Below, piece after piece: positions 25,795 through 63,129 of a stretch of DNA of 64,000 bases. The notes beneath the pieces are model-generated. The model made no database searches. It saw nothing but the letters and a program-made list of their open reading frames with translations, and was not told the DNA's origin. This stretch comes from an uncultured Verrucomicrobiae bacterium (GTDB lineage Bacteria > Verrucomicrobiota > Verrucomicrobiia > Chthoniobacterales > JAATET01), in NCBI GenBank assembly GCA_963832325.1, contig CAWHTR010000002.1:7113-71112 (forward strand), read 5' to 3'. How positions within the stretch are numbered: the first letter of the stretch is position 1; each line of letters starts with the position of its first letter. A program made the translations under genes and the position numbers.

Positions 25795-25931
25795 TTAAAC
25801 CCAGCCGCCGGGAGGAATTCCAGACTCGAAAACTTCCAGCGCAAAGAGGCGCAAAAAGCGCAAGATCCGACCCCGTGGAGGTGAGAATACGATCCCACCC
25901 TCTTGAGCCTTTTGCACCTCTTTGCGGCCAA

Positions 25932-35649: not shown

Positions 35650-35661
35650 GGAATCAATTAG

Positions 35662-37689: not shown

Positions 37690-37996
37690 TTAGCCGCCCT
37701 CACCGGCCCACCTTGCTGCAAGCATCGCCACCGGTCACAGCCAAAAGTCCCGCTATCCCGAAAACCCCACCGACCTTCGACCACAGAACCTCAGGAATGT
37801 CGCCCCTGCGGGCCGCTCCGCAGAGCCAAGAACCTCAAAACTTAAAAACTTGGAAACTTGGAACCCCCGCCTCCACCGACTCGGCGCAAAGAATCCGTAG
37901 TCCGGTATTGAGGCCGACGCCCGACGTAACTATACCAAGGCGCCCGGCCCGCCGCGGGCGCAACCGTTCAATCCGCTTCCATACCTTCGGTTCTCC

Positions 37997-39766: not shown

Positions 39767-39802
39767 CGAAGAACCCCGGCCCGTCACGTCGCCTCCGGGC
39801 AC

Positions 39803-39838
39803 AAAAAAAGGACCGTCAGCAAGATTTGCCAACGGCCC
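39803..39838 (-). terminator. Intrinsic terminator (minus strand) at the distal end of the cassette array
   Basis: On the minus strand an imperfect hairpin (GGGCCGTTGGCAAA/CTTGCTGACGGTCC) is followed by TTTTTTT. It shares the 13-mer GCACAAAAAAAGG with the terminator at 45705. Confidence 0.4.
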
Positions 39839-40049
39839 GTCACGGACTTCTGGTTCGGTGTGGTTCGGATCATCCGCGACCCCGGGAGAAAATCTCCGTG
39901 TTATCCGTGCAATCCGCGGTTCGCGTTTCAAAAGCGGTCGCAGTTTTGAACCGCGTGGAGGAAATCGTGTACGGCCCGATGAAAAATCAAACTTGGAAAA
40001 TCAAAAGACCACCAGCCACCGCAGCGGAACTGTCCGACCTCTGACCTCG

Positions 40050-40448
40050 CTACCCTTCCCAGTTCTCGACGCGGAGACCGGGAACCCGGGCAAATTCCTT
40101 GGTGTTCCGACTGACCAGCGTCACGTCAAGGGACAGCGCGTGTCCAGCAAGCTGAATATCATAAGGGCCGATCAGTCTGCCGACCCGCTCGAGCGTGCAT
40201 CGCACAAACGCCGACCGCCGCGCTGCGTCCCAATCGAATGACAGCAGGTGGAGCGGGGCGAGGAACTCCTCGATCTTTTTCGATTCTCCCAAAGGATCGC
40301 TGCAGCGGTAAACACCGGCATACAGCTCGTAGAGCGCGATCATCGAGACTCCGCAGTCGTCGGGGCGATTTCCCGCCAACTTGCGCCGCGCTAAATCATG
40401 ACCCCGCAGGCAAGCGATGCAAAAATTCGTATCCAGCAGATAAATCAT
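40050..40448 (-). CDS. vapC: PIN-domain toxin VapC (cassette 1)
   Basis: MIYLLDTNFCIACLRG... with acidic PIN residues. 4-nt overlap with the upstream antitoxin. Confidence 0.9.
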   Translation of the reverse strand: MIYLLDTNFCIACLRGHDLARRKLAGNRPDDCGVSMIALYELYAGVYRCSDPLGESKKIEEFLAPLHLLSFDWDAARRSAFVRCTLERVGRLIGPYDIQLAGHALSLDVTLVSRNTKEFARVPGLRVENWEG

Positions 40449-40678
40449 TCGTCCAATCGAGGAATCGGGGGAACCGCCCCCTGATCCGGTCTCTCAAACG
40501 CCGGGTCATCAATCCGAATCGCATCGAAGTATCCGGGAGGCCAGGAGTCGTCCTTGACCGGTTCAATCAGCACACCATCGCCCAGACGCCGCAAACTCAC
40601 CGTCCGGCCTTCAAATCTCAGCTCTTTCGGAATCCGAACGGCTTGTGACCGACCATTCAAGAAAAGGGTTGTCGTCAT
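40445..40678 (-). CDS. vapB: VapB antitoxin (AbrB/SpoVT-type, cassette 1)
   Basis: MTTTLFLNGRSQAVRIPKELRF is the classic VagC/VapB N-terminus. Confidence 0.85.
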   Translation of the reverse strand: MTTTLFLNGRSQAVRIPKELRFEGRTVSLRRLGDGVLIEPVKDDSWPPGYFDAIRIDDPAFERPDQGAVPPIPRLDE

Positions 40679-40684
40679 AGATCG

Positions 40685-40713
40685 TCTATACCTATGGCAC
40701 CACGAAAGATCAA
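40685..40713 (-). promoter_or_regulatory. Sigma70-like promoter, leaderless geometry (cassette 1)
   Basis: Minus strand reads TTGATC-N17-TATAGA-N6-ATG. Confidence 0.4.
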
Positions 40714-40744
40714 ACCGGGAAAATCAGAGATGCCCCTCCCTCCG

Positions 40745-41000
40745 CGCGTTGCCTTGCAGGCTGTCTCGCAAGCTCGGCTCGCGCGAGTCCCTGTATTGGT
40801 GCTTTTATCCAGCAGAGGCGCTGAGACGCGGAGGGCTGAAATTCAGTTATTGGTTATTGGGAGCAGCTGATCTGTCGATTTAGCGCTCCTGGCGTGAAAC
40901 CCATCACCATCTTCATTCTCTGCGCCTCTGCGCCTCTGCGCGAGCCCCGCATCGGTATTCCTCATCCCCACAACCCGCTACCCGTTACCCGCTCCCGCCA
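40745..41000. repeat. Mosaic hairpin-repeat block B
   Basis: Module CGCGTTGCCTTGCAGGCTGTCTCGCAAGCTCGG, loop GAGTCCCTGTATTGGTGC, reverse core 40812-40835, variable segment type a, forward core CTCTGCGCCTCTGCGCCTCTGCGCGAG 40918-40944, then a GGGTAGCGGGT-type tail. Confidence 0.85.
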
Positions 41001-41027
41001 CCGAGACAACGTCGCCTCCTCGTTCGT

Positions 41028-41432
41028 TCAGGGACATTCAAGCGGAAGTCGGCATCCGAAGCTTAGAAAATCCCGCTTGTTCAGCGTCAGGATCTGTTCA
41101 GCGCCCGCTTTTTCCGCAGCAGCCGCGTGAAGGAAATCGTGCACCAAGCCACCTCGCACGCCCGATTCCTGACAAACAGACAAGGCCGCAAGAGTGTCCT
41201 CCCCGTCCAATTCGACCAGTGCGACGGAACCCGTCAATTCGCGGATCATTCGGAACGCATCGTCCGGCTGGCACCGAAACCCCAGCCGACCACCGGTGAG
41301 AGTCGAAAACACCTCCGCCAGCGAATGCGGCCTCGTCCAACCGCCAGCTGCCTCCAGTCGATCCCTCACTCCATCCGACTGCAAGGCTTCCACCAGCGCC
41401 GAGGCATCCCAATAGAGTCGACTACCTCGCAT
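41028..41432 (-). CDS. PIN-domain toxin (cassette 2)
   Basis: 134 aa. LYWDASALVEAL N-terminus and ...GGLVHDFLHAAAAEKAGAEQILTLNKRDF C-terminus, PIN-like. Confidence 0.8.
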   Translation of the reverse strand: MRGSRLYWDASALVEALQSDGVRDRLEAAGGWTRPHSLAEVFSTLTGGRLGFRCQPDDAFRMIRELTGSVALVELDGEDTLAALSVCQESGVRGGLVHDFLHAAAAEKAGAEQILTLNKRDFLSFGCRLPLECP

Positions 41433-41664
41433 CGCGTTCCGCTCGAATCGCAGCAGCGATCGTCTCCGCAGCGGCCCGCGTCGGTGGCAACATGGTCCGT
41501 CCTCCGCGTGTCGTCACCGCCACACACTCCACTTCCCCGGGTTTGATGAGCCGAAATGTCACCCGCTCAGCGTCCTGCACATCCCTCACCAGAATATCAC
41601 CCGGCTGAAACGGAGCCGGAAACACCCCCCGCCTCCTCGAATCCAATTTCGTCACAGCCTCCAC
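41422..41664 (-). CDS. Putative AbrB/MazE-fold antitoxin (cassette 2)
   Basis: 80 aa with a GTG start and an 11-nt overlap with the PIN gene. Contains GVFPAPFQPGDIL. Confidence 0.65.
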   Translation of the reverse strand: MEAVTKLDSRRRGVFPAPFQPGDILVRDVQDAERVTFRLIKPGEVECVAVTTRGGRTMLPPTRAAAETIAAAIRAERDAR

Positions 41665-41665
41665 A

Positions 41666-41699
41666 GTGGGAAATTCCCACGGCCAGATCTCGATGTCAA
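41666..41699 (-). promoter_or_regulatory. Promoter-like element with a perfect 7-1-7 palindrome (cassette 2)
   Basis: Minus strand reads TTGACA-N17-GAATTT-N6-GTG. Palindrome GTGGGAA-A-TTCCCAC (41666-41680) overlaps the -10 box. Confidence 0.35.
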
Positions 41700-41711
41700 A
41701 CTCAGGAAAAG

Positions 41712-42089
41712 CGGTGTCGAGAGACGAGGGTCGAGCAACGAGTGGCGAGAGTGGAACTCCGTAACCTAAAAACTTAGAAACCTAAAAACCCAGAAACTTG
41801 GAACCCCAAGACCTCCGAAGCTCCCGACATGGCCTTTATAGTGCCCCCCCTCTGCGCCTCTGCGCGAGTTCCTGTATTAATACTGATGCTTTTATCCCGC
41901 AGAGGCGCTGAGGCGCGGAGATCCTGAAATACAGGTGATAGTTATTAGGTATTGGGAGCAGCTGATCTGTAGACCTGCCGCTCTTCGCTCGAGGGCCGCG
42001 TGAAATCCATCACCATTTTTATCCTCTGCGCCTCTGCGCCTCTGCGCGAGTCCCTGTATTGATACTTTTCCCCGCAGAGGCGCAGAGGG
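41712..42089. repeat. Mosaic hairpin-repeat block C
   Basis: AACCTAAAAAC-type module (41763-41805, also present at 44649-44688), forward core 41850-68, reverse core 41899-920, segment type a, and a complete hairpin unit 42024-42089 (15-16 bp stem, ~30-nt loop) ending 10 nt from the vapC3 stop. Confidence 0.85.
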
Positions 42090-42098
42090 AATGCCTTT

Positions 42099-42509
42099 TC
42101 AGGGAGTCGTCGAGGGATCAACGATGGTGAGGCCATCGAAGTAGTCGCGATAATATCCACGATCCCGGGCAAGGAGCCTTCCCGCGTGGCAAGCCGCGTG
42201 GGATCCAATGAGAAAATCCGCCATCACGCGCTTTGGAGCTGCGGTCCTTCCCAGATATCGACGCATCATTTCACCGGCAGACTGCGCGGATGCCTGGGTC
42301 GAGGGCACAAACTGGATGTTCCACTCTGCAAGAAAATGCGTCACATCGCCTTCAGGCAGTGCCGGGGTGATTTCCGCCAGAGCGCATTCCCCGATGATGA
42401 GGGACCCGGAGGCAATCGCGGTTCGCACGGCCGCCACCGAGCCACCTGCCCAACGCGGATCGTCCGTGAGGATATCCAGAACCACACTGGAATCCAGAGC
42501 GGTCTTCAC
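42099..42509 (-). CDS. PIN-domain toxin (cassette 3)
   Basis: Probable GTG start at 42509 (VKTALDSSVVLDIL) gives a GTGA overlap with the antitoxin stop. Track ORF extends to 42581. Confidence 0.8.
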   Translation of the reverse strand: MKTALDSSVVLDILTDDPRWAGGSVAAVRTAIASGSLIIGECALAEITPALPEGDVTHFLAEWNIQFVPSTQASAQSAGEMMRRYLGRTAAPKRVMADFLIGSHAACHAGRLLARDRGYYRDYFDGLTIVDPSTTP

Positions 42510-42733
42510 GGCTCCCGGCGGGTGAGGTCGAGGTATTCGTCCACCGAACAGCCCTTCGGAAGCTGCCCTTTCCCTCGCCATCTCGCGACGGGATCCTCCA
42601 TCATGACTTTTCGGATGATCACGGAGCCAGCCTCTTCCCGAAAATTCAAAACCGATCCGGGAAGCAACCCGAGGTCGTCGCGGAGTTTTTTCGGGATGGT
42701 GATCTGACCTTTTTCAGAGAGGACGGCATTCAT
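42506..42733 (-). CDS. AbrB/MazE/SpoVT-type antitoxin (cassette 3)
   Basis: MNAVLSEKGQITIPKKLRDDLGLLPGSVL is the canonical SpoVT-AbrB motif. Confidence 0.85.
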   Translation of the reverse strand: MNAVLSEKGQITIPKKLRDDLGLLPGSVLNFREEAGSVIIRKVMMEDPVARWRGKGQLPKGCSVDEYLDLTRREP

Positions 42734-42739
42734 ACCGAT

Positions 42740-42767
42740 ACTGTAGGATTTCCTACTTGTTCGTCAA
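42740..42767 (-). promoter_or_regulatory. Sigma70-like promoter, leaderless geometry, with operator-like palindrome (cassette 3)
   Basis: Minus strand reads TTGACG-N16-TACAGT-N6-ATG. GTAGGA-TT-TCCTAC (42743-56) spans the -10 box and the adjacent spacer. Confidence 0.4.
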
Positions 42768-42794
42768 GACGGAGCCGCGAAGGCGCGCTTCGCG

Positions 42795-43095
42795 TTGCCT
42801 TGCAGGCTGTCTCGCAAGCTCGGGTTGCGCGAGTTCCTGTATTGATACTGATACTTTTATCCCGCAGAGGCGCTGAGACGCAGAGAGGATTCTTTCGAAG
42901 ATTCACCTTCCTCAGATTCCATCCGTTTTTGTTCTTCAACTTTTCCTCATCCGCATTTGTATCAATCTCTGCGTCTCTGCGCCTCTGCGCGAGTCCCTGT
43001 ATTGATACTTTTAGCCCGCAGAGGCGCAAAGACGCGGAGGGAATGGCGATGAGATGCGGGTAGCGGGTTAAATCCAACGCGCAACCCGCCACCTG
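42795..43095. repeat. Mosaic hairpin-repeat block D
   Basis: CGCGTTGCCTTGCAGG module, reverse core 42864-88, variable segment type c, forward core 42967-93 plus loop plus reverse core 43018-41, then the GGCGATGAG..GGGTAGCGGGTT..AAATCCAACGCGC module shared with 44796-44860. Confidence 0.85.
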
Positions 43096-43107
43096 CGAAA
43101 CGGTCCG

Positions 43108-43136
43108 TTGACATAGCCACCATGATACCATAAAAG
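43108..43136 (+). promoter_or_regulatory. Sigma70-like promoter, leaderless geometry (cassette 4)
   Basis: TTGACA-N17-TAAAAG-N7-ATG on the plus strand. Confidence 0.45.
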
Positions 43137-43143
43137 CATAATC

Positions 43144-43398
43144 ATGCGAACGACCCTGGATTTGCCTCCAGATGTGAGTGCCACCTTGCGCCACGAATCC
43201 GCTCGCCGGGGCGGGCGCGGGAGGGCCCCCCTCTCGCTTCTTGTCGCAGAAGCCGTGCGAGCAAAATTCGGGGGCGAATCCGATTCGAGCGCCCGAGCGT
43301 TGGATCTCGATTCGGACTTTCCAACCGTTCGGCGAACCCGCCCGGAGGAACTCATCGACCAAAAATCCATCGATCAAGCACTCGACGAAATTTTGTGA
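43144..43398 (+). CDS. VapB-type antitoxin (cassette 4)
   Basis: The MRTTLDLPPDV start is typical of RHH/VapB antitoxins. 4-nt overlap with the PIN gene. Confidence 0.7.
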   Translation: MRTTLDLPPDVSATLRHESARRGGRGRAPLSLLVAEAVRAKFGGESDSSARALDLDSDFPTVRRTRPEELIDQKSIDQALDEIL

Positions 43399-43808
43399 AG
43401 TTCCTGCTCGATGCCAACATCGTCTTCGGCGCGATCACGGAAGCCCACCCGCACCATCTCGCGTTCCGGCATTGGATCGTCGATCAGCGCAGAGCGGGCC
43501 TGGCCACTTGTGCGGAGGTCCGACTCGCTTATCTGCGGCTTTCGATGAACCCAGATGTCATGAATCAGGCTCCACTCACCGCACTCCAAGCGTGGACAAT
43601 GCTTCAAAGATTCGTCTCAGCACCCGCACCCGGGTGGGTTGTGTCAAATCCGCCCCGGGAAGAATTCATCACTTCTGCCGGTCGTCATCGAGAGATTCAG
43701 GACAATTACCTCGTTCAAATCGCGACGGAAGCCGGGTGCAAACTCGCAACGCGAGACGCGCGATTGGTCAAGCACTGGCCGGATCGGACCATTTTTGTCC
43801 CAGCATAA
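43395..43808 (+). CDS. vapC: PIN-domain toxin VapC (cassette 4, the only plus-strand cassette)
   Basis: MKFLLDANIVFGAI... and ...QDNYLVQIATEAGCKLATRD, PIN motifs. Confidence 0.85.
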   Translation: MKFLLDANIVFGAITEAHPHHLAFRHWIVDQRRAGLATCAEVRLAYLRLSMNPDVMNQAPLTALQAWTMLQRFVSAPAPGWVVSNPPREEFITSAGRHREIQDNYLVQIATEAGCKLATRDARLVKHWPDRTIFVPA

Positions 43809-43868
43809 CGGCTGGCGCGCCGAGGACGACGGGCGAACTGCCGCCGACCGCAGACCCTCTCCCCCCCG

Positions 43869-44135
43869 CTCTGCGCGAGTCCCTGTATTGATGCTTTTGT
43901 CCCGCGGAGGCGCAGAGGCGCGGAGATCCTGAAATACAGGTGATCGTTATTGGTTATCGGAAATAGCTGATCTGAAGATTTAGCGCTCTTTGCGTGAAAC
44001 CCATCCGCATTTGCATCAATCTCTGTGCCTCTGCGCCTCAGCGCGAGTCCCTCATTGAATCGACTCCCGCTTTGATTCGGTTCGCTCCCGCTCACCTCAC
44101 CTCGTGCCCCGAGCGTGTCGCCCTGCGGGCTACGT
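43869..44135. repeat. Mosaic hairpin-repeat block E
   Basis: Short forward core 43869-79, loop, reverse core 43904-25, segment type a, forward core 44021-47, then a degenerate TTCGCTCCCGCTCA...GCCCTGCGGGC module. Confidence 0.8.
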
Positions 44136-44317
44136 CTACTCAGATTTCGTCAGATCTCTGATGATCTTCTTCGCAAGGATCTCGTTAATTTCTCGGTGAC
44201 GTGGAACCGGTTGAGAGACCCCTGACGCTGGGTTGTGATAATGTCATGACGGGAACCGTGCCGCAAAAGAAGACAGCCAGCCGATTCGATTTTCGTAATC
44301 ACATCTCGGCGTTTCAA
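44136..44317 (-). pseudogene. hicA: hicA toxin with an apparent -1 frameshift
   Basis: From TTG at 44317 the sequence reads (M)KRRDVITKIESAGCLLLRHGSRHDI. The family-typical continuation YHNPASGVSQPVPRHREINEILAKKIIRDL is in the -1 frame. One missing T in GACAT(T)TATCAC near 44240 would restore it. Confidence 0.7.
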
Positions 44318-44324
44318 GCGATCT

Positions 44325-44507
44325 TCAAGCTTCCGACTCTCTTCGAATCCCGGGCAAGCTCTCGGAAGAGAAAGTCGAAAGGAGATCAACAAGTTGTTCT
44401 CTAAGATCTTGCATGTCGTCGCCCTGAGTCCAGTGATCTGGATAGTCGTTCAAGTATCCCAAATATTTTCCGTCAGCCTCTTGCCAAAAAGTGAAGTTTG
44501 CCTTCAT
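44325..44507 (-). CDS. HicB-like antitoxin (short)
   Basis: MKANFTFWQEADGKYLGYLNDYPDHWTQGDDMQDLREQLVDL resembles the HicB N-terminal fold. Its stop is 7 nt upstream of hicA. Confidence 0.6.
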   Translation of the reverse strand: MKANFTFWQEADGKYLGYLNDYPDHWTQGDDMQDLREQLVDLLSTFSSESLPGIRRESEA

Positions 44508-44580
44508 CGTTTTTTGATAACTTGGAACAGTGGCGGTATACAGTCAAACCGATGATCTTGGTTCGGTCCTGTTGCCAGTA

Positions 44581-44860
44581 GCCGAGAGTCGAGGGCGAAC
44601 CCCGGAAACCCAGTGTTTCGGTGTTTCGAGACGAGAGTGGAACTCAGCAACCTAAAAGCTTAAAAACCTAAAAACCTCCGAAGCTCCCTCCATGCCTTCA
44701 TGATGAAATCCCCCCTCTGCGCGTTGCCTTGCAGGCTGTCTCGCAAGCTCGGCTCGCGCGAGTTCCTGGATCGATACTTTTCTCCCGCAGCGGCGCGGAG
44801 GGAACGGCGATGAGTTACGGGTAGCGGGTTGCGGGGCAAATCCAACGCGCCATCCACCGA
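44581..44860. repeat. Mosaic hairpin-repeat block F
   Basis: GAGACGAGAGTGGAACTC/AACCTAAAAGC module (as in block C), short forward core 44715-23, CGCGTTGCCTTGCAGG module, reverse core 44787-802, and the GGGTAGCGGGTT/AAATCCAACGCGC module (as in block D). Confidence 0.8.
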
Positions 44861-44898
44861 CCCGCGATTTCCGATTTTCGATTTCGGAACCCTCGACT

Positions 44899-45456
44899 TC
44901 AGAGACTTCCGGCAATTTTGCGCAGCCGGGCCACGATTTCCGGCGCTTCTTTCAATTCGGCGAGTGGCGTCAATTCCTCGAAGACCAGATTCCAGTCGAT
45001 CGACTTCTGGCGTCGCATGATCCCATCGACATCCAGCCAATCGCGGTCACGCGAAGCGAAAGCCTTGTGCACCAGAAGATCTTCCGCAGAACAAGTTAAT
45101 ACCCCGCGGCCAGCTTCAAGCCTCCACTTCGTCGCGCGAGAGATCGCACGTTCTTCAAACGGCATCGCACCCAAGGCAATATCAATGGGAACCCCCGATT
45201 CGTCGGAAACGAGCAAAACCCGGTTCGCGAGAGCGAAGTCCCTGGCATTTCCAATCCGGGGCCGGTAGCGGCCCAGCAGGCGATCCACAAATTGCTCCTC
45301 CTCGCCGAACCCGGTCAGCAGGGTAATGTCGATATCCTGGGTAAAACGTGGCTCCCCCCAGCGCTGCACCGCCAGCCCACCGATCACGCAATAAAGGAAC
45401 CCTGCCTCGTCGAGATATCGCCCAAGGGCTTGAGCGCTCTCCAGCAATGGAGTCAT
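44899..45456 (-). CDS. Minimal nucleotidyltransferase-fold protein (AbiEii/MNT-like)
   Basis: The GGLAVQRWGEPRFTQDIDITLL motif (GG..A....T.DID) is the NTase fold signature. 185 aa. Confidence 0.7.
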   Translation of the reverse strand: MTPLLESAQALGRYLDEAGFLYCVIGGLAVQRWGEPRFTQDIDITLLTGFGEEEQFVDRLLGRYRPRIGNARDFALANRVLLVSDESGVPIDIALGAMPFEERAISRATKWRLEAGRGVLTCSAEDLLVHKAFASRDRDWLDVDGIMRRQKSIDWNLVFEELTPLAELKEAPEIVARLRKIAGSL

Positions 45457-45668
45457 CAGCGACCTCGCAGGAATATTTCCTGCTGCACGACAAGTCCACT
45501 CGAGGACAACGGGGTGAAGCTGGAAGGAGCCACCCGTGAAAACGCCAGCACGGCCGCCTCATCATCCAAGGCGCGCAACTCAGCGGTTCGCACCTCCTCA
45601 AGCGCCACCGCCGCAGATCCCCATTGCGCCACCCACTTCCGGGCATTGTCTTCGACCGACCGCTCCAT
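45456..45668 (-). CDS. 70-aa partner protein of the nucleotidyltransferase (putative antitoxin/regulator)
   Basis: 1-nt stop/start overlap (TGATG) with the NTase gene. No family recognised. Confidence 0.5.
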   Translation of the reverse strand: MERSVEDNARKWVAQWGSAAVALEEVRTAELRALDDEAAVLAFSRVAPSSFTPLSSSGLVVQQEIFLRGR

Positions 45669-45704
45669 CCCACCATCCTAGCCCCGCAGCAAACCGAAAG
45701 GCAC

Positions 45705-45737
45705 AAAAAAAGGCGGAAGAGCACAAGCTCTCCCGCC
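45705..45737 (-). terminator. Canonical intrinsic terminator (minus strand)
   Basis: Minus strand reads GGCGGGAGAGC-UUGU-GCUCUUCCGCC followed by UUUUUUU. It lies 37 nt upstream of the 45668 start and at the downstream end of the 1.1-kb repeat tract. Confidence 0.6.
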
Positions 45738-45807
45738 TTCAGGACCTTCGGTCATGGTTATTGGTAATGCCAAGGAGCGGCGTTTTCCAAACGCCGACCA
45801 AACGCCG

Positions 45808-46890
45808 AAGTTGACTCCCGCGTTGATTTCGGGCTTGCCCAGCCCGTCACCACCCACTCTGCGCCCCTGCGCGAGTTCCTGGATTGATACTTTTCTCCCG
45901 CAGAGGCGCGAAGGCGCGGAGATCCTGAAATACAGGTGATCGTTTTTGGTTATTGGGAGCAGCTGATTTGTAGGTTTAGCGCTCTTTGCGTGAAACCCAT
46001 CCGCATTTGTATCAATCTCTGCGCCTCTGCGCCTCCGCGCGAGTTCCCGCATTGGTATTACGAATTACCTTCTTGAGCTTCTGCGCATGTTGACTCGGTC
46101 GTTCCCCGTTGCCGATTTCGCTCCCGCTCAACAGCCCTGCGGGCCACCTATCGGTGGGCGATGTCGCTCGACTCCCGTCGGCTCCAATCTCTGCGCCTCT
46201 GCGCCTTTGATTCCCTCGCGACCCGGCTCGGTCACCCTTCGGGCTTATCGTCTACTTTCGGCTCCCCCGAGCCTTCGGTTGCGCGAGCCCCTGTATTGAT
46301 ACTTTTATCCCGCAGAGGCGCTGAGGCGCTGAGGGAATTCTTTTAAAAATTCGTTTCGGTTATTCGGAATGCGCTTCAAATAACCTGAATGCGCTCTTCA
46401 TCATTCTCATTTGTATCAATCTCTGCGTCTCTGCGCCTCCGCGCGAGTCCCTGTATTTATGCTGCGGATTACCTTCTCGAGCTTCTTGCGCATGTTGACT
46501 CGGTCGTTCCCCGTTGCCGATTTCGCTCCCGCTCAACAGCCCTGCGGGCCACCTATCGGTGGGCTATGTCGCTCGACTCCCGTCGGCTCCATTCTCTGCG
46601 CCTCTGCGCCTTTGATTCCCTCGCGACCCGGCTCGGTCACCCTTCGGGCTTATCGTCTACTTTCGGCTCCCCCGAGCCTTCGGTTGCGCGAGTCCCTGTA
46701 TTGATACTTTTATCCCGCAGAGGCGCTGAGACGCGGAGAGGATTCTTTCGAAGATTCACCTTCCTTAGATTCCGTCCGCTTTTGTTCTTCAACTTTTCCT
46801 CATTCGCATTTGTATCAACCTCCGCGCCTCTGCGTCTCCGCGCGAGTCCCGCATTGGTATTCGAATTCCCTATTTAGCTTCTTGCGCCAT
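45808..46890. repeat. Gene-free 1.1-kb mosaic repeat tract G with ~400-bp periodicity
   Basis: Forward cores at 45857, 46027, 46189, 46421, 46594 and 46819. Reverse cores at 45900, 46312 and 46718. Two ~272-bp copies (46068-46337 and 46468-46743) differ at about 8 positions. Confidence 0.9.
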
Positions 46891-46897
46891 ATTGCGG

Positions 46898-47917
46898 CTA
46901 AGCCAGCGTCTTCTCTCCGCAATCGGTCCACCAATCGCGCAGGGCTTCTTCGAGCGTGAACTGCAGCTCATACCCATCCTCCACCAGCCGTTTCCCGGAG
47001 ATATTGTTGGAGATCATGAGCTTCTTGACCCGATCCGGGTGAAACCCGCCACCGAGACCTTGGAGCGGGGTCAGCGCCGCCGCGACCGCTCGCAGCGCTG
47101 CGCCCGGCACGACCAGGCTCGGCAGCGGCGCACCGGTCACTTGCGAGATCGCTCCACAAATCTCCTCGATCGTCGGGGCGGGCTGATAAGTCAGGTTGTA
47201 GAGAAACACACCCGGCTCGGGTCGGGCCGCCATTTCAATCAACAGCCGGGCGAGATCCTTCACGTAGATGCAGGCTTTGATCGTGTTCTTCCGCCCCGGA
47301 TACACGAACCGCTTCTTCGCCATCGCCCCCGCCAACCGCGTGACATTGCCTCCCTCGCCAGCGCCGAAGACGACCCCCGGCCGCACGATGACGAGCCGCC
47401 GTTCGTCCGACCGCTCCGCCTGCCAGGTCCGATGAATGTGCTCCGCCACCAGCTTCGAGATCCCGTAGGCCGTGTTCGGCAGCGGCAGCGTGTCCTCCGT
47501 CTTGAGCGGCTCCGACGCCCCGTAGGGCGCAATCGAACTCGTAAAAACAATCGTCCGCACATCGTGTTCCCGCGCAAACGCACACACGTTCTCCGCGCCA
47601 AGCAGGTTCGTCTCGAAATACTCGCGCTTCGGATGCCCCGGCGTCCGGTGGACGGCAGCGAAGTTATAAATCGTAGCGGGTAGCGGGTCACTGGTGGCGG
47701 GTGATGGAGCAGTTCCCCTCACAGACTCGCGGCAATCCAAGCGCCACGCGCCACTCCCATCCCGGACATCACCTCGAACAAACCTCCGCGCCGCACCCTG
47801 CGGCCGATCCGACTCCGCCAGATCCACCGATACGACCGACTCGCCACCACCGAGCAACCGCTCGGCCACATGCCTCCCGATGAAGCCTTCGCCGCCGAAA
47901 ATAATTGATTCACTCAT
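46898..47917 (-). CDS. NAD-dependent epimerase/dehydratase (SDR)
   Basis: IIFGGEGFIGRHV (GxxGxxG) and an extended-SDR layout. Carries a possible repeat-derived insertion (see findings). Confidence 0.85.
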   Translation of the reverse strand: MSESIIFGGEGFIGRHVAERLLGGGESVVSVDLAESDRPQGAARRFVRGDVRDGSGAWRLDCRESVRGTAPSPATSDPLPATIYNFAAVHRTPGHPKREYFETNLLGAENVCAFAREHDVRTIVFTSSIAPYGASEPLKTEDTLPLPNTAYGISKLVAEHIHRTWQAERSDERRLVIVRPGVVFGAGEGGNVTRLAGAMAKKRFVYPGRKNTIKACIYVKDLARLLIEMAARPEPGVFLYNLTYQPAPTIEEICGAISQVTGAPLPSLVVPGAALRAVAAALTPLQGLGGGFHPDRVKKLMISNNISGKRLVEDGYELQFTLEEALRDWWTDCGEKTLA

Positions 47918-47934
47918 TTCTTAAAAATTCAGCC

Positions 47935-48240
47935 GCAAAAAGGTCGGAAGGTCGGAAGGTCGCAGGTCGCCAGCGTTCAGCTCTCGACGCTCGACTTTCA
48001 GTTGTTGACTCGGTTGTTCCCAGTTGCCCGCACTGCTCCCGCAGTTCGGCCCTTCGGACTGCACTGCAGAGCCGATGCAGTCTGCCTCAGCCGTTGATTC
48101 CGGGCTCGCCCAGCCCGTCACCGCTTTGCGGCTGTCACTTTGTTTCAGTCTATCTCAATCTCTCCCCGCGATCTCGGTTCCCGGCGGCTCGAGGCCCAAC
48201 TTTCAGCTTTCACTCCCCCGCCACTCGACGTCCCCGCTCC
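47935..48240. repeat. Degenerate copies of repeat modules (block H)
   Basis: GGTCGGAAGGTCGGAAGGTCG. TTGACTCGGTTGTTCCCAGTTGCCCG (compare 46093-46117). GTTGATTCCGGGCTCGCCCAGCCCGTCACC (compare 45822-45851). Confidence 0.5.
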
Positions 48241-48735
48241 CTATTCCCCGGCAGCGCGGGAAAGCGCATCGATCAATCCGCTGCGCAAATGATAGCCTTC
48301 CGCTTGCAGGGCCAGCAATAATGGACGGACCGCTGGGATCAAACCCCGCGACTTCGCACGAACAAGCACCCCACCCGTTCCAATCATCGGGAGATGATAC
48401 ACTTCGTGCGCCAACCGCCTTCCTTTGCGCTCATCGATGAGCAGACGAGCGTGGGGCATCTGTAGAGCCAGCGCAATGATGCTCGCTTCACCAAAATCCA
48501 GCACCGTCCCCAGCCAGACATCCGGCAAAGGAGGATCTTCTACGACTTGAATCCACGGGTGAGCGTGAATCGCGTCGCTCACCGGCTTGTCTGTCGATTC
48601 GCTGACCTCACGAAATACGGCATCCGTAGTGATGGTGGCACCGTAAAGTTCGCGCAGTAGTCCCAGCCGACCGATCAGGCTAAGCGCGATGATCGGCCCC
48701 GCATCTGCGATCACGCACTCCCTGGCACCGATCAT
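48241..48735 (-). CDS. DUF3368 PIN-like nucleic-acid-binding protein (putative toxin)
   Basis: VIADAGPIIALSLIGRLGLLRELYG is the typical DUF3368 N-terminus. Paired with a UPF0175 gene. Confidence 0.8.
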   Translation of the reverse strand: MIGARECVIADAGPIIALSLIGRLGLLRELYGATITTDAVFREVSESTDKPVSDAIHAHPWIQVVEDPPLPDVWLGTVLDFGEASIIALALQMPHARLLIDERKGRRLAHEVYHLPMIGTGGVLVRAKSRGLIPAVRPLLLALQAEGYHLRSGLIDALSRAAGE

Positions 48736-48738
48736 TCC

Positions 48739-48999
48739 TCACTCCGTCGTCGCGACCGCCAATTCCCGCGCGAGGTCGTCGGAGTCCAAATCGGTAACGG
48801 GCATTCCACGGCAGCCCGCCGCGAGAAGAAAGTCCGCACGATTCATTCCCGCCATGCGAGCCGCCTGTCCCGAACTCAGCCGCCCCGTGCAAAAATAATG
48901 GAAGGCGATTTCTCTCTGCGCTTCCTTGGACAATTCTTCCAAAGAAATCGCCTGCTGAACCACGAGGGCATCCGGGATCTTGAGCGTCAACGTTTTCAT
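48739..48999 (-). CDS. UPF0175-family antitoxin
   Basis: ...EAQREIAFHYFCTGRLSSGQAARMAGMNRADFLLAAG is the UPF0175 HTH signature. Confidence 0.8.
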   Translation of the reverse strand: MKTLTLKIPDALVVQQAISLEELSKEAQREIAFHYFCTGRLSSGQAARMAGMNRADFLLAAGCRGMPVTDLDSDDLARELAVATTE

Positions 49000-49007
49000 G
49001 CACCCAT

Positions 49008-49036
49008 CCTATCCTCTGATTTTCGCAAAATCGCAA
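49008..49036 (-). promoter_or_regulatory. Promoter-like element with a 6-3-6 palindrome upstream of the UPF0175 gene
   Basis: Minus strand reads TTGCGA-N17-GATAGG-N8-ATG. GATTTT-CGC-AAAATC (49018-32) lies in the spacer. Confidence 0.3.
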
Positions 49037-49059
49037 GACTGCGGACAATTCGCCGTCAA

Positions 49060-49462
49060 TCCAGTCCCCCTCACAGACTCGCTACAAGCCACCAGCCACT
49101 CAACACTCGCCACTGGTTATTGGCTATTGGTTATTGGTTGATAGTTGTTGGTTGATAGTTGTTGGTTATTGGAGCCCCTCGATAGACTCGTTGATGCCAT
49201 TCCCTTCTGGATCCGGCACCCCTTCCGGGCTGGCCCGACTGACGGACCAGTCTATCTCGATCGGCCACCACCGATCTCGATTCGCTCCCGCTCATGTCGC
49301 CCTGCGGGCCGTCGCTTTGCTCCAGTCTGCCCCGAGCCGTCCCACGGCTCCGGTGCTCTCGACTCTGGACACTTGACTTCCCAACTCTGCGTCTCTGCGC
49401 CTCTGCGCGAGCTCGCATTGGTATACCGAATTACTTTTTGAGCCTTTTGCGCCTGTTTGCGG
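49060..49462. repeat. Repeat block I
   Basis: CCCCTCACAGACTCGC (49067-82, identical 16-mer inside the epimerase CDS at 47715-30), GGTTATTGG microsatellite, TTCGCTCCCGCTCA..GCCCTGCGGGC module, and forward core 49385-49411. Confidence 0.8.
49115..49172. repeat. Short tandem repeat (GGTTATTGG / TTGATAGTTGTTGG units)
   Basis: Reads GGTTATTGG CTATTGG TTATTGG TTGATAGTTGTTGG TTGATAGTTGTTGG TTATTGG. Confidence 0.85.
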
Positions 49463-49870
49463 CTAAACTTCACTCGTCTTCAACGGCTTAACGCACCCGC
49501 CAAGTTTCCGCAGCAAACACCCGAGAGACAATCCGACGAATCCGCCGAGCGCGCCCCACCCCACGTCTTGGATCGAGGCCGTGCGGCTGGGAACAAAATA
49601 CTGCGCACCTTCGACCAGGAGCACCAAGGCAACGAGCACCACCGCCGAAACGATCACGCGCCGCCCAGACCGCGACAAGAACCCCGTCACCCCGCCGAGC
49701 AGCAGAAACGGCACCGCCGTCCGCACATCCTCGCCACCCCGCCCGTCGGCCCACTTCGTCAGAACCGTCGGCAGCCAGTCGATCTCTCCGAGGTGTGGAG
49801 AGGGACGAATCGAGAAATAGACAATCAGCCCGACGAGGACAGCGCCAACGACAACTAAAAGGAAACGCAT
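49463..49870 (-). CDS. VanZ-family membrane protein
   Basis: 135 aa, four TM helices, and the ...EGAQYFVPSRTASIQDVGWGALG motif typical of VanZ-like proteins. Confidence 0.75.
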   Translation of the reverse strand: MRFLLVVVGAVLVGLIVYFSIRPSPHLGEIDWLPTVLTKWADGRGGEDVRTAVPFLLLGGVTGFLSRSGRRVIVSAVVLVALVLLVEGAQYFVPSRTASIQDVGWGALGGFVGLSLGCLLRKLGGCVKPLKTSEV

Positions 49871-49900
49871 CGTCAGGTGTAAAAAGGGGCAACCCTTAGC

Positions 49901-49987
49901 GGGTTACGAGTGACGAGTTGCGGGTTACGAGTTGCGGGCACCTCCGCGCCTCTGCGCCTCCGCGCGAGAACCCGTATTCGTATTTCC
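49901..49987. repeat. Repeat block J (overlaps the 3' end of the GT4 gene)
   Basis: GGGTTACGAGT tandem motif followed by forward core CCTCCGCGCCTCTGCGCCTCCGCGCGAG (49941-68) and a loop-like CCCGTATTCGTATT. Confidence 0.8.
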
Positions 49988-51196
49988 GCCCTCTCCAGCC
50001 AGCCGCAACAATTCGCTCTCATACATCGCCAGGATTCGATCCCTTCGATAATTCTCAGCCCACTCCACCGCCCGTGCTCCCAGCTCGACTAGGGTGGCCG
50101 GTTGACGCTCCCATCGGTCGAGCACTTCGCGTAAAGCCTCAACGTCGCCCGGTTCCACGATCTCGCCGAAACCACCGCGCCCGACTTCGAGACCCAGCGG
50201 GCTATCCGCCTCGCACACCGCAAGCACCGGGGTCCCGGCCGCGAGCGCCGGCAAGAGTTTGCTCGGCAGAAAATTCGCTCCGACCCCGGGCATCTGCGTC
50301 ACCAGACACGCCGCGCACGACATGAGAGCCGTCACGTAATCCGCCTCCGACCGCACTCCGCCAAACTCGATGTGCTCGTTGCCTTCGATCGAGGCCCGCA
50401 GCTGATCCAACTGAATCCCGCCGCCCCGGATCTGCATCGTCCAATTCGCCTTCGCCGCCATGAAGGACTCGAGGAAATGCGGCAGACCCTGCTTGATCCC
50501 GAGATTTCCGCTGTAAAGCAATACCCCCGACCGCTCCCAATCGGTCGCCCGCGTCTGACGTCCCACCTCGTCCGCCAGACTTTGATGAATCCAATTCGGA
50601 ATCATCCGCAATCTCCGACCCTCGCCGACAATCTCCCGTAGTTTGCCGAGCATTCGATCACTGATGGTCGAAAGCGTCGTTGCCGAGCGATAGGTCCACC
50701 GCTCGAGCAATCGCAGCGGTGTTCCGATAAACGGCACCTTCAGTATTCCCAGTTCCAAGGCCGCATCCACGACGAAATCCTGCACAACGATCATCCGCGG
50801 GATTCGCTTCCCGAGATAAATAAACCGTTGGGCCAGGCATTGGGAAAACATCGGCGAAGCCGCCAGGATCACGTCCGGAGTCCACTCCCTGAACTTCCCT
50901 CGTCGCAGAATGGACAAAAGAAAGCTCAGATCCGAAAGCAGACGTTTGGATCCGGTCGGCTGGGCCGGAACATACATCGCGAGTCGCTGCACTGGAATCC
51001 CATTCCAAACCTCGTCACGCGATGCCACACCGACATCCTCTGCCCGCAGTTTCCAGGCCGGATAATACGAGAAGGTGCACAGCACTCGCACGTCATGACC
51101 CTGCTCCTTGAGATACAAAGCAAGGTCTGTAAACAATGCCGCACCCGCCAACTCGTCCGGGTAAAACAGATGCGAATGTAGGTAGATTTTACTCAC
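49925..51196 (-). CDS. Glycosyltransferase family 4 (WcaI-like)
   Basis: MSKIYLHSHLFYPDELAGAALFTDLALYLKEQGHDV N-terminus and a GT-B C-terminal domain. The last ~20 codons are encoded by repeat block J. Confidence 0.85.
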   Translation of the reverse strand: MSKIYLHSHLFYPDELAGAALFTDLALYLKEQGHDVRVLCTFSYYPAWKLRAEDVGVASRDEVWNGIPVQRLAMYVPAQPTGSKRLLSDLSFLLSILRRGKFREWTPDVILAASPMFSQCLAQRFIYLGKRIPRMIVVQDFVVDAALELGILKVPFIGTPLRLLERWTYRSATTLSTISDRMLGKLREIVGEGRRLRMIPNWIHQSLADEVGRQTRATDWERSGVLLYSGNLGIKQGLPHFLESFMAAKANWTMQIRGGGIQLDQLRASIEGNEHIEFGGVRSEADYVTALMSCAACLVTQMPGVGANFLPSKLLPALAAGTPVLAVCEADSPLGLEVGRGGFGEIVEPGDVEALREVLDRWERQPATLVELGARAVEWAENYRRDRILAMYESELLRLAGEGGNTNTGSRAEAQRRGGARNS

Positions 51197-51359: not shown

Positions 51360-52100
51360 CTATCTACCGAAAAGGAAATCTGCCTGAACGAGATCTCCTT
51401 CAATGAGCATTTCATTGTGACGCGAGATCTCGCGAAACCCACGGTCAGCGAGAAATCCCGCGACCTCCACGTAGAGCGCCTGTCCCTCGTAGAGCTCCCG
51501 CGCCGAGCATTCCGCATACACGTAGGCGCAGCGGGCCAACGTCTCCGTTGCGCCCTCAAGGACCTTGAGTTCAAAGCCCTGAACATCGAGCTTGAGCAGA
51601 CCTTTCGAAAAGTCCCCGAGCTCAATCAAATACCCATCCAACCTCCGAACCGGGACGGTGAGCGTGCCCGCCTCATCCGTGCCGGAAAATATTTCCCGCT
51701 GCGCCCGCCCGATCGGCAGCAATGACGAGCTGTCTGCGCGGCGACTCACGTGAAGAATCGCCTCGCCATCCTCCGGCCCAAGAGCCACTTCCTTGAGCCG
51801 CACGCCTGGCCAATTCCCATGAACTTTTCGGAAGATCTCCGCCTCACCAGGAATCGGCTCGAACGAAACAATGGGGACGCCAGGCCTGGCAATGCGGCAA
51901 GCGAGGGAAAACTGACCGCGATTCGCGCCGACATCCAAAATTAGGTCAATCTCAAGCCGCTGGAGCACCGACAGATGATCCACCGTCGGCGCGACGCCAA
52001 GGGCGAGCGGCCGCCAACAAGCAGGATGCAAAACCGCTGTTGCAATCTTACGGATACGTAGGGATGTTAGGCTTGACACGACTGACTTGAATTTAATCAA
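51360..52100 (-). CDS. FkbM-family methyltransferase
   Basis: LILDVGANRGQFSL is the SAM motif, in an FkbM-type layout. Confidence 0.85.
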   Translation of the reverse strand: MIKFKSVVSSLTSLRIRKIATAVLHPACWRPLALGVAPTVDHLSVLQRLEIDLILDVGANRGQFSLACRIARPGVPIVSFEPIPGEAEIFRKVHGNWPGVRLKEVALGPEDGEAILHVSRRADSSSLLPIGRAQREIFSGTDEAGTLTVPVRRLDGYLIELGDFSKGLLKLDVQGFELKVLEGATETLARCAYVYAECSARELYEGQALYVEVAGFLADRGFREISRHNEMLIEGDLVQADFLFGR

Positions 52101-52196
52101 TTCTGAGAGCTAATTCGGATTGAACTGCACTGCACCGAAAACGGCAATTCGAAACTTCCCCCGCCGCCCCGTCACAAATGCACAAACCTAGTCGCG

Positions 52197-53333: not shown

Positions 53334-53387
53334 TCAATCTTCAATGTTAAAAATCAATGCCCACACCCAAATTGACGATTGAGATCA

Positions 53388-54332: not shown

Positions 54333-54716
54333 CGCTATTTTTTCCTGCGCGAATACGCGAACGTTGCAAAAGTTTACTCCGCCAACAAACAACGCTACTA
54401 ATCAACTCCTTCAAACCCTCGGTTAACCAAAGACCGTGAACGCGTTAAGCTTGGTGTTAGAATCGATTCTGAATTATGCAGAGTCATGACGTCATCTCTA
54501 GAAGAAGTTGTGACAGCCCGCTTGATACGGATCAACCTTGCGGGCAGATAGAACCACCGATCACTGATTGTCGCTACATTGCGCGAGAAGGACAAATCTC
54601 TACTCAAATAATTTTTCCTTTTGGCAGCACAACGGAATCGGTTCCAATACTGATTGCAAATCCATCATTGCGCGTGAATTTCTGATTTTTCGCAGGCTCT
54701 TTTAAAACAATTTGAA

Positions 54717-55490: not shown

Positions 55491-55659
55491 AATATATATT
55501 TATCGCACTGTCTGAAATACCTTCATTTATTAAACAATTAGTTACTCTCTCTGCGGCCGAATAGAAACGTTTTTGGCGAAGCTTATAAAGCTCCCCCGGA
55601 ATCGTCAAGTTGCATTGGTAGACTTCGGGAGACTAAAAGTTCATTTTAGAACTATGCCT

Positions 55660-58045: not shown

Positions 58046-58061
58046 TCCTGAAAATTCGAGG

Positions 58062-62950: not shown

Positions 62951-62975
62951 TTTGGATTCACGAGCAGGTTCTCGC

Positions 62976-63129
62976 GCCGAGACGCGGAGGGAGGAACGTA
63001 TAGTGAAGGATGAAATCTGAAACACTAAGCGGGAAAGAAGCGGCGACAGCAGAAGTAAGTTTCACCCAGCGTCTTTGCGCCTCCGCGCGAGCCTCACCCT
63101 CTCCCCGCGCCTCTGCGTCTCAGCGCGAG
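62976..63129. repeat. Repeat block K between the epimerase and the rfbH-like gene
   Basis: Reverse-core-like GCCGAGACGCGGAGGG (62976-92) and forward cores at 63071-91 and 63103-29 (..GCGCCTCTGCGTCTCAGCGCGAG). Confidence 0.75.

Follow-up and report, generated by a model that had tools for sequence, protein, structure and literature searches.

An array of co-oriented hairpin repeats between toxin-antitoxin and sugar-gene cassettes at a polysaccharide locus of an uncultured Verrucomicrobiae bacterium

Mosaic repeat arrays that promote exchange are known mainly from Neisseria, as Neisseria intergenic mosaic elements (NIMEs), and from T4-type phages, as promoter early stem-loops (PeSLs). NIME arrays are formed by dRS3 inverted repeats flanking RS elements, have a wave-like GC content and were reported as Neisseria-specific (PMC1797815). 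PeSLs consist of a repeated stem-loop and an upstream element and flank small non-essential open reading frames (ORFs) in hyperplastic regions (PMC2839356, PMC4122927). Here an array of hairpin repeats was analysed in a 64,000-nt stretch of DNA (the window) from an uncultured Verrucomicrobiae bacterium (GCA_963832325.1, CAWHTR010000002.1, positions 7,113-71,112 of the forward strand), where the repeats stand between toxin-antitoxin (TA) and sugar-gene cassettes. NIME arrays, T4-type PeSLs and clusters of type 2 bacterial interspersed mosaic elements (BIME-2) are the closest described systems. The repeats are read as intergenic elements with a structural or regulatory role, specific to the lineage and amplified locally, whose copies provide portable homology by which modules are shuffled in a NIME-, BIME- or PeSL-like manner, and confidence in this reading is evenly balanced. 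The same design principle would then occur in uncultured soil Verrucomicrobiota, a phylum and setting without earlier description, concentrated at one exopolysaccharide/exosortase locus and carrying TA and glycan-modifying genes.

The building block is a 24-27-nt arm, (CTCTGCGC)2-3GAG, together with its imperfect inverse. Arm and inverse arm take turns along the DNA, with a conserved 27-nt joint and an AT-richer linker of 81-103 nt (B1-B3) alternately filling the gaps between them. As in NIMEs, short inverted repeats separate families of 50-150-bp spacers. The wave-like GC profile (arms 73-76%, joint 44%, linkers 33-48%), synteny with a variable unit number among relatives and adjoining cell-surface genes were all seen here. 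Insertion sequences (IS) as opportunistic inserts are a further shared trait, as is a proposed promotion of exchange of neighbouring genes with exogenous DNA. The likeness is one of architecture only, as the dRS3 consensus ATTCCC-N8-GGGAAT is absent and the arms are (CTCTGCGC)n and its inverse. Unlike in NIMEs, arms of 23-27 nt made of 8-mers form a long hairpin, a single locus takes the place of dozens, entire cassettes of TA and sugar genes are enclosed and the host is a verrucomicrobium.

The array shares with PeSLs a repeated stem-loop beside small genes and, probably, module shuffling by recombination between copies. The arm motif also lies between phage genes and forms an indel between related phages. 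In PeSLs, indels and replacements between close relatives map to the motif; in the array and the phages carrying its arm, some junctions fall in the repeat (the switch of left-hand module at the heptamer GCGCGAG, the 3' arm of locus L002 and the 66-nt phage indel) and others outside it (the terminator stem at 45735 and the vapBC2 ends). Promoter and terminator activity were shown for PeSLs, whereas the repeat described here is known from its sequence. The array is also antisense to most of its cassettes.

All copies were aligned on the invariant heptamer GCGCGAG. Three types of sequence precede it on the left: an uninterrupted arm with two or three copies of CTCTGCGC (L-a), and arms in which an insert of 33 nt (L-b) or 75 nt (L-c) sits immediately ahead of the heptamer. 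Three types also follow it on the right. The first is the 27-nt joint, consensus CGAGTCCCTGTATTGATACTTTTATCC, followed by the inverse arm CGCAGAGGCGC(A/T)GAGACGCGGAG (R-a). The second is a 24-nt joint-like piece fused to another pyrimidine arm that abuts a stop codon, that of the epimerase or vanZ gene (R-b). The third is directly the end of a gene, as in the window and in three relatives, where the DegT stop codon is 2 nt on. All combinations of left and right types occur, and the types assort freely. The head-to-tail period of 153-154 nt comprises Y arm, 27-nt joint, R arm and B linker. Modules G (a simple G-rich sequence plus AAATCCAACGCGC), M and U also recur between hairpins and genes, U being an upstream spacer common to hicBA, vapBC2 and another vapBC cassette. 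All intergenic blocks of the region are linked by repeat families, and only 60% of 40050-49924 is coding. The initial annotation had every unit separated from its neighbour by the core. This was found at most boundaries; the boundary between the epimerase and DUF3368 genes (47918-48240) has related modules and no core, and 39767-40049 has none.

The core was searched as the 16-mer CTCTGCGCCTCTGCGC (up to 2 mismatches, expectation from shuffles), core plus loop as a 41-mer (up to 3 mismatches) and the loop as a 22-mer motif (up to 4 mismatches). The window held 35 core matches against 0.11 expected, all confined to 40918-49965 or 63073-63126. Forward and inverted core positions listed earlier were reproduced, lying no more than 10 bases off where checked (46017, not 46027). 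The 41-mer had six copies in the window, all on the + strand. The loop motif occurred 11 times on the + strand and never on the - strand of the window, and 0 times on + and 46 times on - in eight related loci, whose stored sequences run the other way. All loop-bearing units (57/57) were therefore co-oriented and the uniform polarity claimed earlier held, as did the statement that vapBC4 is the only cassette on the other strand. The loop was also as well conserved as the stem, again as proposed: mean pairwise identity was 88.8% for the joint, 90.8% for the 5' arm and 91.7% for the 3' arm, compared to 77% for the linkers. Across 24 copies from four genomes 19 of the 27 joint positions were near-invariant.

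Among 28 complete hairpins Watson-Crick pairing was found at 88% of stem positions. Variation in the stem was restricted to every fourth position, the arms being otherwise nearly invariant, and a T.G mismatch at pair 4 was conserved in 21 of the 28 copies. Covariation was seen at pair 8 alone and was weak (Fisher p = 0.03). G.T wobbles slightly favoured the + strand (42 vs 23), leaving the folding strand undecided. Complete units have a stem of 16-23 bp and a loop of 26-30 nt and fold at -21 to -25 kcal/mol with z about -5.5 (42020-42095: -20.9 kcal/mol, z -5.5; 42960-43045: -24.8 kcal/mol, z -5.6); 41845-41925 reached z -3.4. Copies with truncated or interrupted 5' arms folded like shuffles (43860-43930, z +0.4; 45850-45925, z -1.7; 46670-46735, z -0.7). 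The predicted folding was thus borne out for complete units and failed for several loop-bearing copies, with true 16-23-bp hairpins in only about three or four units of the window. The hairpin is the ideal form of the mosaic rather than a trait of each copy.

No hairpin repeat passed the pattern of an intrinsic terminator (GC-rich stem, 3-8-nt loop, T-run), the loops being 26-35 nt long. This agrees with the earlier view that the element is not a plain terminator, as the real terminators of the organism look different. The only strong terminator calls were 45740-45709 and 39838-39810, both unrelated to the repeat. These are two textbook terminators on the - strand with a 13-14-bp stem, a 3-4-nt loop and a T-run; the one at 45709-45740, upstream of the nucleotidyltransferase (NTase) cassette, shields that cassette from the repeat tract, and the one at 39810-39838 closes the array beside a porin gene. 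A sigma-70 scan gave 5 sites against 3.0 expected, none inside repeats. At a permissive threshold Rfam returned chance miRNA-like matches to the palindrome and nothing else in 39.5-50.5 kb. A scan for tRNA and tmRNA genes, which might have pointed to att sites as the source of the repeats or module G, found none. For linker B1, small ORFs were rejected as the reading frame varies among copies. A Chi-like role of GCGCGAG was also rejected, since the strand bias of the heptamer outside the array tracks base composition and the array copies are oppositely oriented.

The hairpins could nevertheless work as an RNA-level device, as unconventional terminators, insulators or stabilisers of mRNA 3' ends. 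Clustering would then reflect the density of transcription units, and recombination would be a side effect. R-type arms lie 2-60 nt after the stops of DegT, GT4, epimerase and vanZ. Sister hairpins of the K type (described below) directly follow trpF and the glycosyltransferase and epimerase genes of a relative, with T-rich tails after them. The paired form in phages is an R-loop-Y between genes, and some linkers start with GGAATTCTTTTT immediately after the stem. This explanation is unlikely, given loops of 27-100 nt, a T-run missing from most copies and the presence of canonical terminators in the region, one of which sits between a hairpin and the NTase cassette. Two to three tandem units and the 1-kb gene-free tract 45857-46897 exceed what insulation needs, and operon boundaries in the other 54 kb of the window lack the element.

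A stringent core-plus-loop pattern was scanned against the GTDB set with one genome per species. It matched eight 8-kb bins in three Verrucomicrobiae metagenome-assembled genomes (MAGs), CAVXHK01, CAVRCI01 and CAVUDH01 (CAVXHK, CAVRCI and CAVUDH below), at one locus each and on a single strand. In CAVXHK the bins were 312-328 and 344-360 kb of a 2.14-Mb contig, with all 22 matches within 48 kb. The bins were 648-656 and 696-704 kb in CAVRCI and 16-24 and 48-56 kb in CAVUDH. Because matches were limited to the equivalent polysaccharide locus in the three MAGs, the full unit is not a genome-wide family of repetitive extragenic palindromes (REPs), and the even, generic spread that had been considered was not seen. 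A hairpin profile was searched with nhmmer in array and non-array DNA. It found about 18 sites in the window array and about 40 in CAVXHK, and no match in window 1-40 kb or in 72 kb from relatives without an array. In all, about 170 kb of non-array DNA was free of matches. A scan of JGI metagenomes for core plus loop gave one chance match, inside a coding region.

Comparisons were made with the three MAGs and with the genome carrying L012, the window being a fourth genome that is not identical to any of the MAGs. The L012 relative, with a flanking protein 73% identical, has a short array with cores and without the joint. Because distant homologues of the flanking 693-aa gene (L010, L015, L016 and the CAVRCI copy L013) had neither an array nor a repeat nearby, the array appears confined to a narrow clade. 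In the window and its relatives the array lies between the priming glycosyltransferase and 693-aa glycoside hydrolase-like gene on one side and a low-GC glycosyltransferase block on the other. A second patch lies towards DegT, exosortase and GDP-mannose dehydratase genes. The placement of the array inside a polysaccharide locus was correct, and a co-oriented, locus-restricted scaffold partitions the accessory cassettes there.

The arrays of relatives were syntenic, as the proposed alignment of the locus showed, yet they differed by whole cassettes and in repeat number. CAVUDH has hicBA-vapBC3-vapBC2 and lacks vapBC4. In CAVXHK one more vapBC stands between the cassettes NTase and hicBA, and GT4 is the direct neighbour of the epimerase. 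In CAVRCI vanZ adjoins the epimerase. Shared cassettes were more similar (NTase 97.3%, vapBC2 93%, vapBC4 92%, hicBA 89-92%) than the flanking core genes (693-aa gene 81%, priming glycosyltransferase 74%), which indicates, as judged from these identities, recent cassette-level exchange between co-resident species. Cassettes of the relatives encode PIN, MNT/HEPN, HepT, DUF6036/AbiEii, HicA, PDDEXK_3, 23S_rRNA_IVP and fragments of WecG and DegT. As GT4 and the epimerase are adjacent in CAVXHK, the polysaccharide genes among the cassettes appear to be locus-resident rather than captured.

Between vapBC4 and hicBA there are two hairpin-plus-linker units in the window and three in CAVXHK. Units of 153-154 nt are tandemly repeated 2-3 times in CAVXHK, and a 405-bp duplication is present in the window. 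The extra vapBC of CAVXHK is flanked on both sides by a duplicated [G-hairpin-U] block. This duplication is both a substrate and a signature of direct-repeat recombination, and the window arrangement is derivable from it by direct-repeat deletion. The five cassettes compared in two or more contexts had ragged, non-coincident ends. Upstream homology of the NTase cassette stops inside the canonical terminator stem at 45735. For hicBA the breakpoint is the stop codon in the window and lies 36 nt further, at or inside the 3' arm, in three relatives. Homology of vapBC2 breaks off within the U spacer and 65 nt beyond the stop codon. Remnants of polysaccharide genes were also seen in the arrays, as DegT 3' ends still joined to GCGCGAG and C-terminal fragments of WecG (L001 484-659; L008 3682-3771; L002 3449-3793; L012 2900-3220). 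On their sequence these remnants show what is probably gene decay anchored at repeats.

Integron cassette arrays and clusters of attC sites lacking integron-integrases (CALINs) also have co-oriented structured sites between self-contained, TA- and defence-rich cassettes, with content that varies among relatives and, in CALINs, no adjacent integrase (PMC4889954, PMC13108822). Pairs of R'' RYYYAAC and R' GTTRRRY closing a stable hairpin were sought on both strands along the full window with a crude structural scan. No candidates were found and neither motif occurs in the units, in line with the earlier statement that no attC core is present. Pfam searches of the submitted window ORFs gave no tyrosine, serine or HUH recombinase, and for these ORFs the reported lack of a recombinase holds, though two DDE insertion sequences are present; the remaining housekeeping ORFs were named by eye from their translations. 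In about 90 kb of arrays plus 10-kb flanks from CAVXHK, CAVRCI, CAVUDH and the L012 genome no tyrosine, serine or Y1 enzyme was found. This search used precomputed Pfam annotation of gene calls and our own scans; with the window included, about 150 kb from five genomes were covered. Gene calls were the precomputed ones where available and ORFs picked in this analysis elsewhere. Two or three hairpins plus linkers, not one site, lie between cassettes, and no fixed cassette boundary exists within the site, as the ends of hicBA, NTase, vapBC2 and vapBC4 vary by context. In contrast to integrons the cassettes also include the apparently locus-resident polysaccharide genes. The initial annotation had offered both a NIME-like and an integron-like architecture. 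The NIME-like mosaic fits much better, and the integron-type reading fails for lack of an attC signature, a recombinase, a single hairpin per boundary and a fixed breakpoint.

A dedicated site-specific recombinase encoded elsewhere could still use the arms and 27-nt joint as a non-canonical site, which would make the array CALIN-like. The sites are locus-restricted, strictly co-oriented and placed between self-contained TA-rich cassettes, and their polarity is independent of cassette orientation (vapBC4). The joint and the T.G mismatch at stem pair 4 (21/28) are conserved, flanks assort freely at GCGCGAG, cassettes have been exchanged across species and TA cassettes are typical of chromosomal integrons (PMC13108822). 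With zero RYYYAAC/GTTRRRY pairs, no tyrosine or serine recombinase in the window or about 90 kb of relatives, several hairpins and linkers per boundary, ragged ends in five cassettes, many half sites and an arm that occurs singly in phages, this is considered quite improbable. A new cassette-capture platform is very unlikely. In such a platform a recombinase encoded elsewhere, or on temperate phages that share the arm, would recognise the hairpin or joint, act at or near GCGCGAG and insert or excise TA, defence and glycan cassettes in fixed polarity. If true, integrons would have a functional counterpart in Verrucomicrobiota that uses an unrelated site.

The pdif modules of Acinetobacter plasmids are flanked by 28-bp XerC-spacer-XerD sites in alternating orientation and carry TA and resistance genes. 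They share with the array small modules, often TA pairs, bounded by repeated sites without a dedicated recombinase nearby. They differ in that the repeats here are hairpins of about 75 nt, with all loop-bearing units in one orientation. A dif-like 11-6-11 site was not recognised, though no search aimed at a dif profile was made.

REPs and BIMEs associated with REP-associated tyrosine transposases (RAYTs) are extragenic and show strong strain length polymorphism, with inverted units alternating with two linkers head-to-tail and gene 3' ends caught in clusters (PMC2817692). The repeats could accordingly be non-autonomous elements whose hairpin arms are recognised on single-stranded DNA by a Y1 (RAYT or IS200/IS605-like) transposase, which would amplify head-to-tail modules near its own gene and fix their orientation relative to replication. 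Inverted arms with two alternating spacers, head-to-tail, match the BIME-2 layout, and the one-strand polarity lies within a region of strong, constant GC skew. REPs can pile up near a newly acquired rayt and can catch gene 3' ends between them (PMC2817692), which matches the DegT and WecG remnants. The 66-nt indel between two phages is discrete. However, no Y1/HUH gene was seen in any sequence examined, and no ORF examined had a Y1_Tnp match. The arms begin CTCTGCGC and are not 20-40-nt palindromes with a GTAG/CGTC head. About 20-45 copies are found at one locus rather than more than 100 dispersed at high copy, and no conserved flanking tetranucleotide or target duplication is visible. A transposase-driven origin is therefore regarded as improbable.

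The core had been described as the common denominator of the array. It proved not to be array-specific, as the motif is widespread between genes of viral contigs and a sister hairpin stands at trpF. The trpF hairpin (25838-25928) has a 27-bp stem with GCGCAAAG-type and CTTTGCGC-type arms and lies about 55 nt before leuB, which shows that oligomer-repeat hairpins occur sparsely at housekeeping genes too. In CAVXHK a hairpin of this K type separates GT4 from the epimerase and another follows the epimerase (L017 2098-2225, 3313-3480). In the window the K-type hairpins at the epimerase and vanZ are split, with the gene-proximal arm fused to array sequence (R-b). An AbiEii cassette in a distant relative is flanked by about 30 copies of (CTTTCCA)n (L018 2020-2250), and flanking accessory genes with arms of short oligomer repeats appears to be customary in this lineage.

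The exact 27-mer (CTCTGCGY)3GAG was found in 9 stretches of 8 IMG/VR contigs, and the 18-mer CTCTGCGCCTCTGCGCGA 79 times in 62 viral-contig stretches (L021-L082, IMG/VR). Some of these contigs encode a major head protein, tail fibre and integrase. Of the 79 instances 48 were single, 29 R-loop-Y and 2 in the Y-loop-R register scored in the initial annotation. Parts of the array likewise read R-arm/linker/Y-arm on the - strand, which is sense for most cassettes, and the conserved loop then becomes the joint between units. This register is not kept throughout, as the Y arm comes first after the vapC3 stop. The viral motif is intergenic and often ends GAGAAT/GATAAT, 14-64 nt before an ORF. Its orientation (48/79 sense vs 44/79 in the control) was confounded by spurious GC-rich ORFs and is uninformative; unambiguous co-directional cases were 9 sense and 1 antisense. 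A tendency to be sense and upstream of ORFs, and with it a promoter reading, is suggestive only. The related phages L025 (4474-4545) and L029 (5541-5546) differ by a 66-nt indel that bears the motif and fits exactly into the space from a stop codon to the next ATG. Candidate roles of the motif in phages are those of a promoter-like sequence, a leader or a selfish element, and follow-up of the array may offer a route to the role of the (CTCTGCGC)n motif common to host and temperate phages.

Portable homology, the reading preferred here, would work as follows. The arms would pair into long hairpins in single-stranded nucleic acid, and these would most likely insulate, or form the 3' ends of, the many small units that are transcribed independently. 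Dozens of direct copies, about 90% identical and side by side, would provide the homology. Repeat-unit number would change through unequal crossing-over and slippage. Cassettes would be inserted, deleted and swapped by homologous or illegitimate recombination with DNA of co-resident relatives, probably the main driver. Co-orientation would be expected because amplification and exchange run through direct-repeat recombination. Enrichment in TA genes would also be expected, since direct repeats provoke deletions and TA genes make these costly, which may stabilise the array; TA genes in integron arrays have been explained in the same way (PMC13108822). Pursued with long-read soil data, the locus would be a tractable case for how non-integron cassette arrays arise and a test of TA stabilisation.

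Several points weigh against portable homology. Locus restriction is unexplained by homologous recombination alone. Conservation of the joint is not predicted by pure hitch-hiking and could mark a protein site. The meeting of different left and right modules at one heptamer is also expected from a site-specific or one-ended enzymatic event. Joint conservation, the recurrent GCGCGAG junction and strict locus restriction thus keep the rival explanations alive. The RNA- or DNA-level role of the hairpin is a presumed one, and the short loop and T-run of the organism's terminators are absent. The complete 27-nt arm is antisense to most window cassettes, compared to a tendency to be sense and upstream of ORFs in phages, and a phage function, if any, cannot simply be transferred to the array. 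The MAGs compared come from a single long-read assembly (ERZ25039505, sample MFD03250) and form a narrow comparison set. Chimeras across bins are disfavoured, as identities are below 100%.

The features of the window are listed in Table 1. Pfam matches agreed with the genes named earlier for the four PIN/antitoxin pairs, AbiEii, the epimerase, UPF0175/DUF3368 and VanZ, two of the PIN matches being weak. The proposed hicBA had a HicA match in an intact copy from a relative and not in the window copy.

Table 1. Array units, repeat blocks and related hairpins in the window
Feature	Position	Strand	Evidence or composition
Cassette 1: PIN toxin (40050-40448) and MazE/AbrB-type antitoxin (40445-40678)	40050..40678	-	Pfam PIN 4.7e-13, MazE_antitoxin 1.4e-9
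Repeat block: L-b hairpin variant (33-nt insert in 5' arm), linker B1 (40836-40917), half unit (CTCTGCGC)x3+GCGCGAG (40918-40944) without 3' arm	40739..40965	+	GCGCGAG 40781, 3' arm 40812-40833
Cassette 2: PIN toxin and 80-aa antitoxin candidate	41028..41664	-	Pfam PIN 1.3e-6; 93% identical to CAVUDH (L005) cassette
Repeat block: hairpin 41850-41920, linker B1 41921-42023, complete hairpin 42024-42089	41850..42089	+	
Cassette 3: weak PIN toxin and MazE-type antitoxin	42099..42733	-	Pfam MazE 6.3e-10, PIN E 0.012
Repeat block: L-b variant (GCGCGAG 42827), linker B2 42886-42966, complete 23-bp hairpin 42967-43040, module G 43041-43095	42790..43095	+	
Cassette 4 (vapBC4): RHH-like antitoxin and PIN toxin	43144..43808	+	Sole + strand cassette; 92% identical to CAVXHK cassette, missing from CAVUDH array
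Repeat block: hairpin with one-unit 5' arm, linker B1, half unit 44021-44047, module M to hicA stop	43869..44140	+	
hicBA-type cassette	44150..44507	-	Intact relative copy matches HicA_toxin; window copy with 1-nt deletion
Repeat block: L-b hairpin variant with short 3' arm, then module G	44715..44865	+	
AbiEii-type nucleotidyltransferase (44899-45456) and 70-aa upstream ORF	44899..45668	-	97% (nucleotide, protein) vs CAVXHK cassette
Gene-free repeat tract: hairpin, linker B1, tandem 405-bp duplication 46004-46748, linkers B3 and B2	45857..46897	+	Duplicated unit: half unit, R-b, M, 75-nt L-c insert, loop/3' arm; tract ends in half unit fused to K-type arm (R-b) abutting epimerase stop codon
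NAD-dependent epimerase/dehydratase	46898..47917	-	Pfam 2.4e-29
UPF0175/DUF3368 pair	48241..48999	-	Pfam; position lacks pair in CAVXHK and CAVRCI
Half unit (CTCTGCGY)x3+GCGCGAG fused to K-type arm abutting vanZ stop codon	49385..49462	+	
VanZ-like gene	49463..49870	-	Pfam
Half unit overlapping/replacing 3' end of GT4 glycosyltransferase gene (49925-51196)	49942..49968	+	
Second repeat patch: partial 3' arm 62966-62990 and two degenerate 5' arms	62966..63129	+	GCGCGAG ends 2 nt from stop of DegT-type aminotransferase; junction recurs in L001, L004, L008
K-type sister hairpin directly after trpF stop	25838..25928	.	Arms GCGCAAAGAGGCGCAAAAAGCGC and GCCTTTTGCACCTCTTTGCGGC

The window copy of hicA (44150-44392) has a 1-nt deletion near 44241 relative to L002, L003 and L005 and no HicA_toxin match. 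It is a pseudogene or carries a long-read indel error, and single-base frameshifts of this kind may in general be sequencing errors. The last approximately 20 codons of GT4 (49925-49993) are repeat-derived in comparison with the CAVXHK orthologue, the ORF reading through the repeat arm.

Just upstream of the array are two DDE insertion sequences (31963-33563 and 35659-37692) with terminal inverted repeats of 24 nt and 21 nt. A gene for an N6/N4 DNA methylase (30978-31856) also lies beside the array, and the methylase and both IS are missing from the syntenic stretch of CAVXHK. An origin of the repeats as a miniature inverted-repeat transposable element of a neighbouring IS was rejected, as the hairpin arms bear no relation to the terminal repeats of the IS (TAGCCCGAGTTCCGCAGTTGG; CTAGCAGCCTGTCGG...). 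A block of glycosyltransferase, methyltransferase and flippase genes at 52000-63000 has a GC content of 45-52%, compared to about 62% elsewhere, and is free of repeats between its genes. With a repeat patch on either side, the block has the appearance of a glycan module gained by horizontal transfer. Over nearly all 64 kb the GC skew is strongly negative (-0.04 to -0.40 per kb, four 1-kb bins positive) regardless of gene strand. Tandem 7-8-mers are abundant in intergenic DNA, such as TGGTTAT x8, AAGGTCGG x3 and AACCTAAA x3.5 (49114-49172, 47940-47962 and 41763-41797). Upstream of genes, their sense strand is as a rule rich in pyrimidines or in C.

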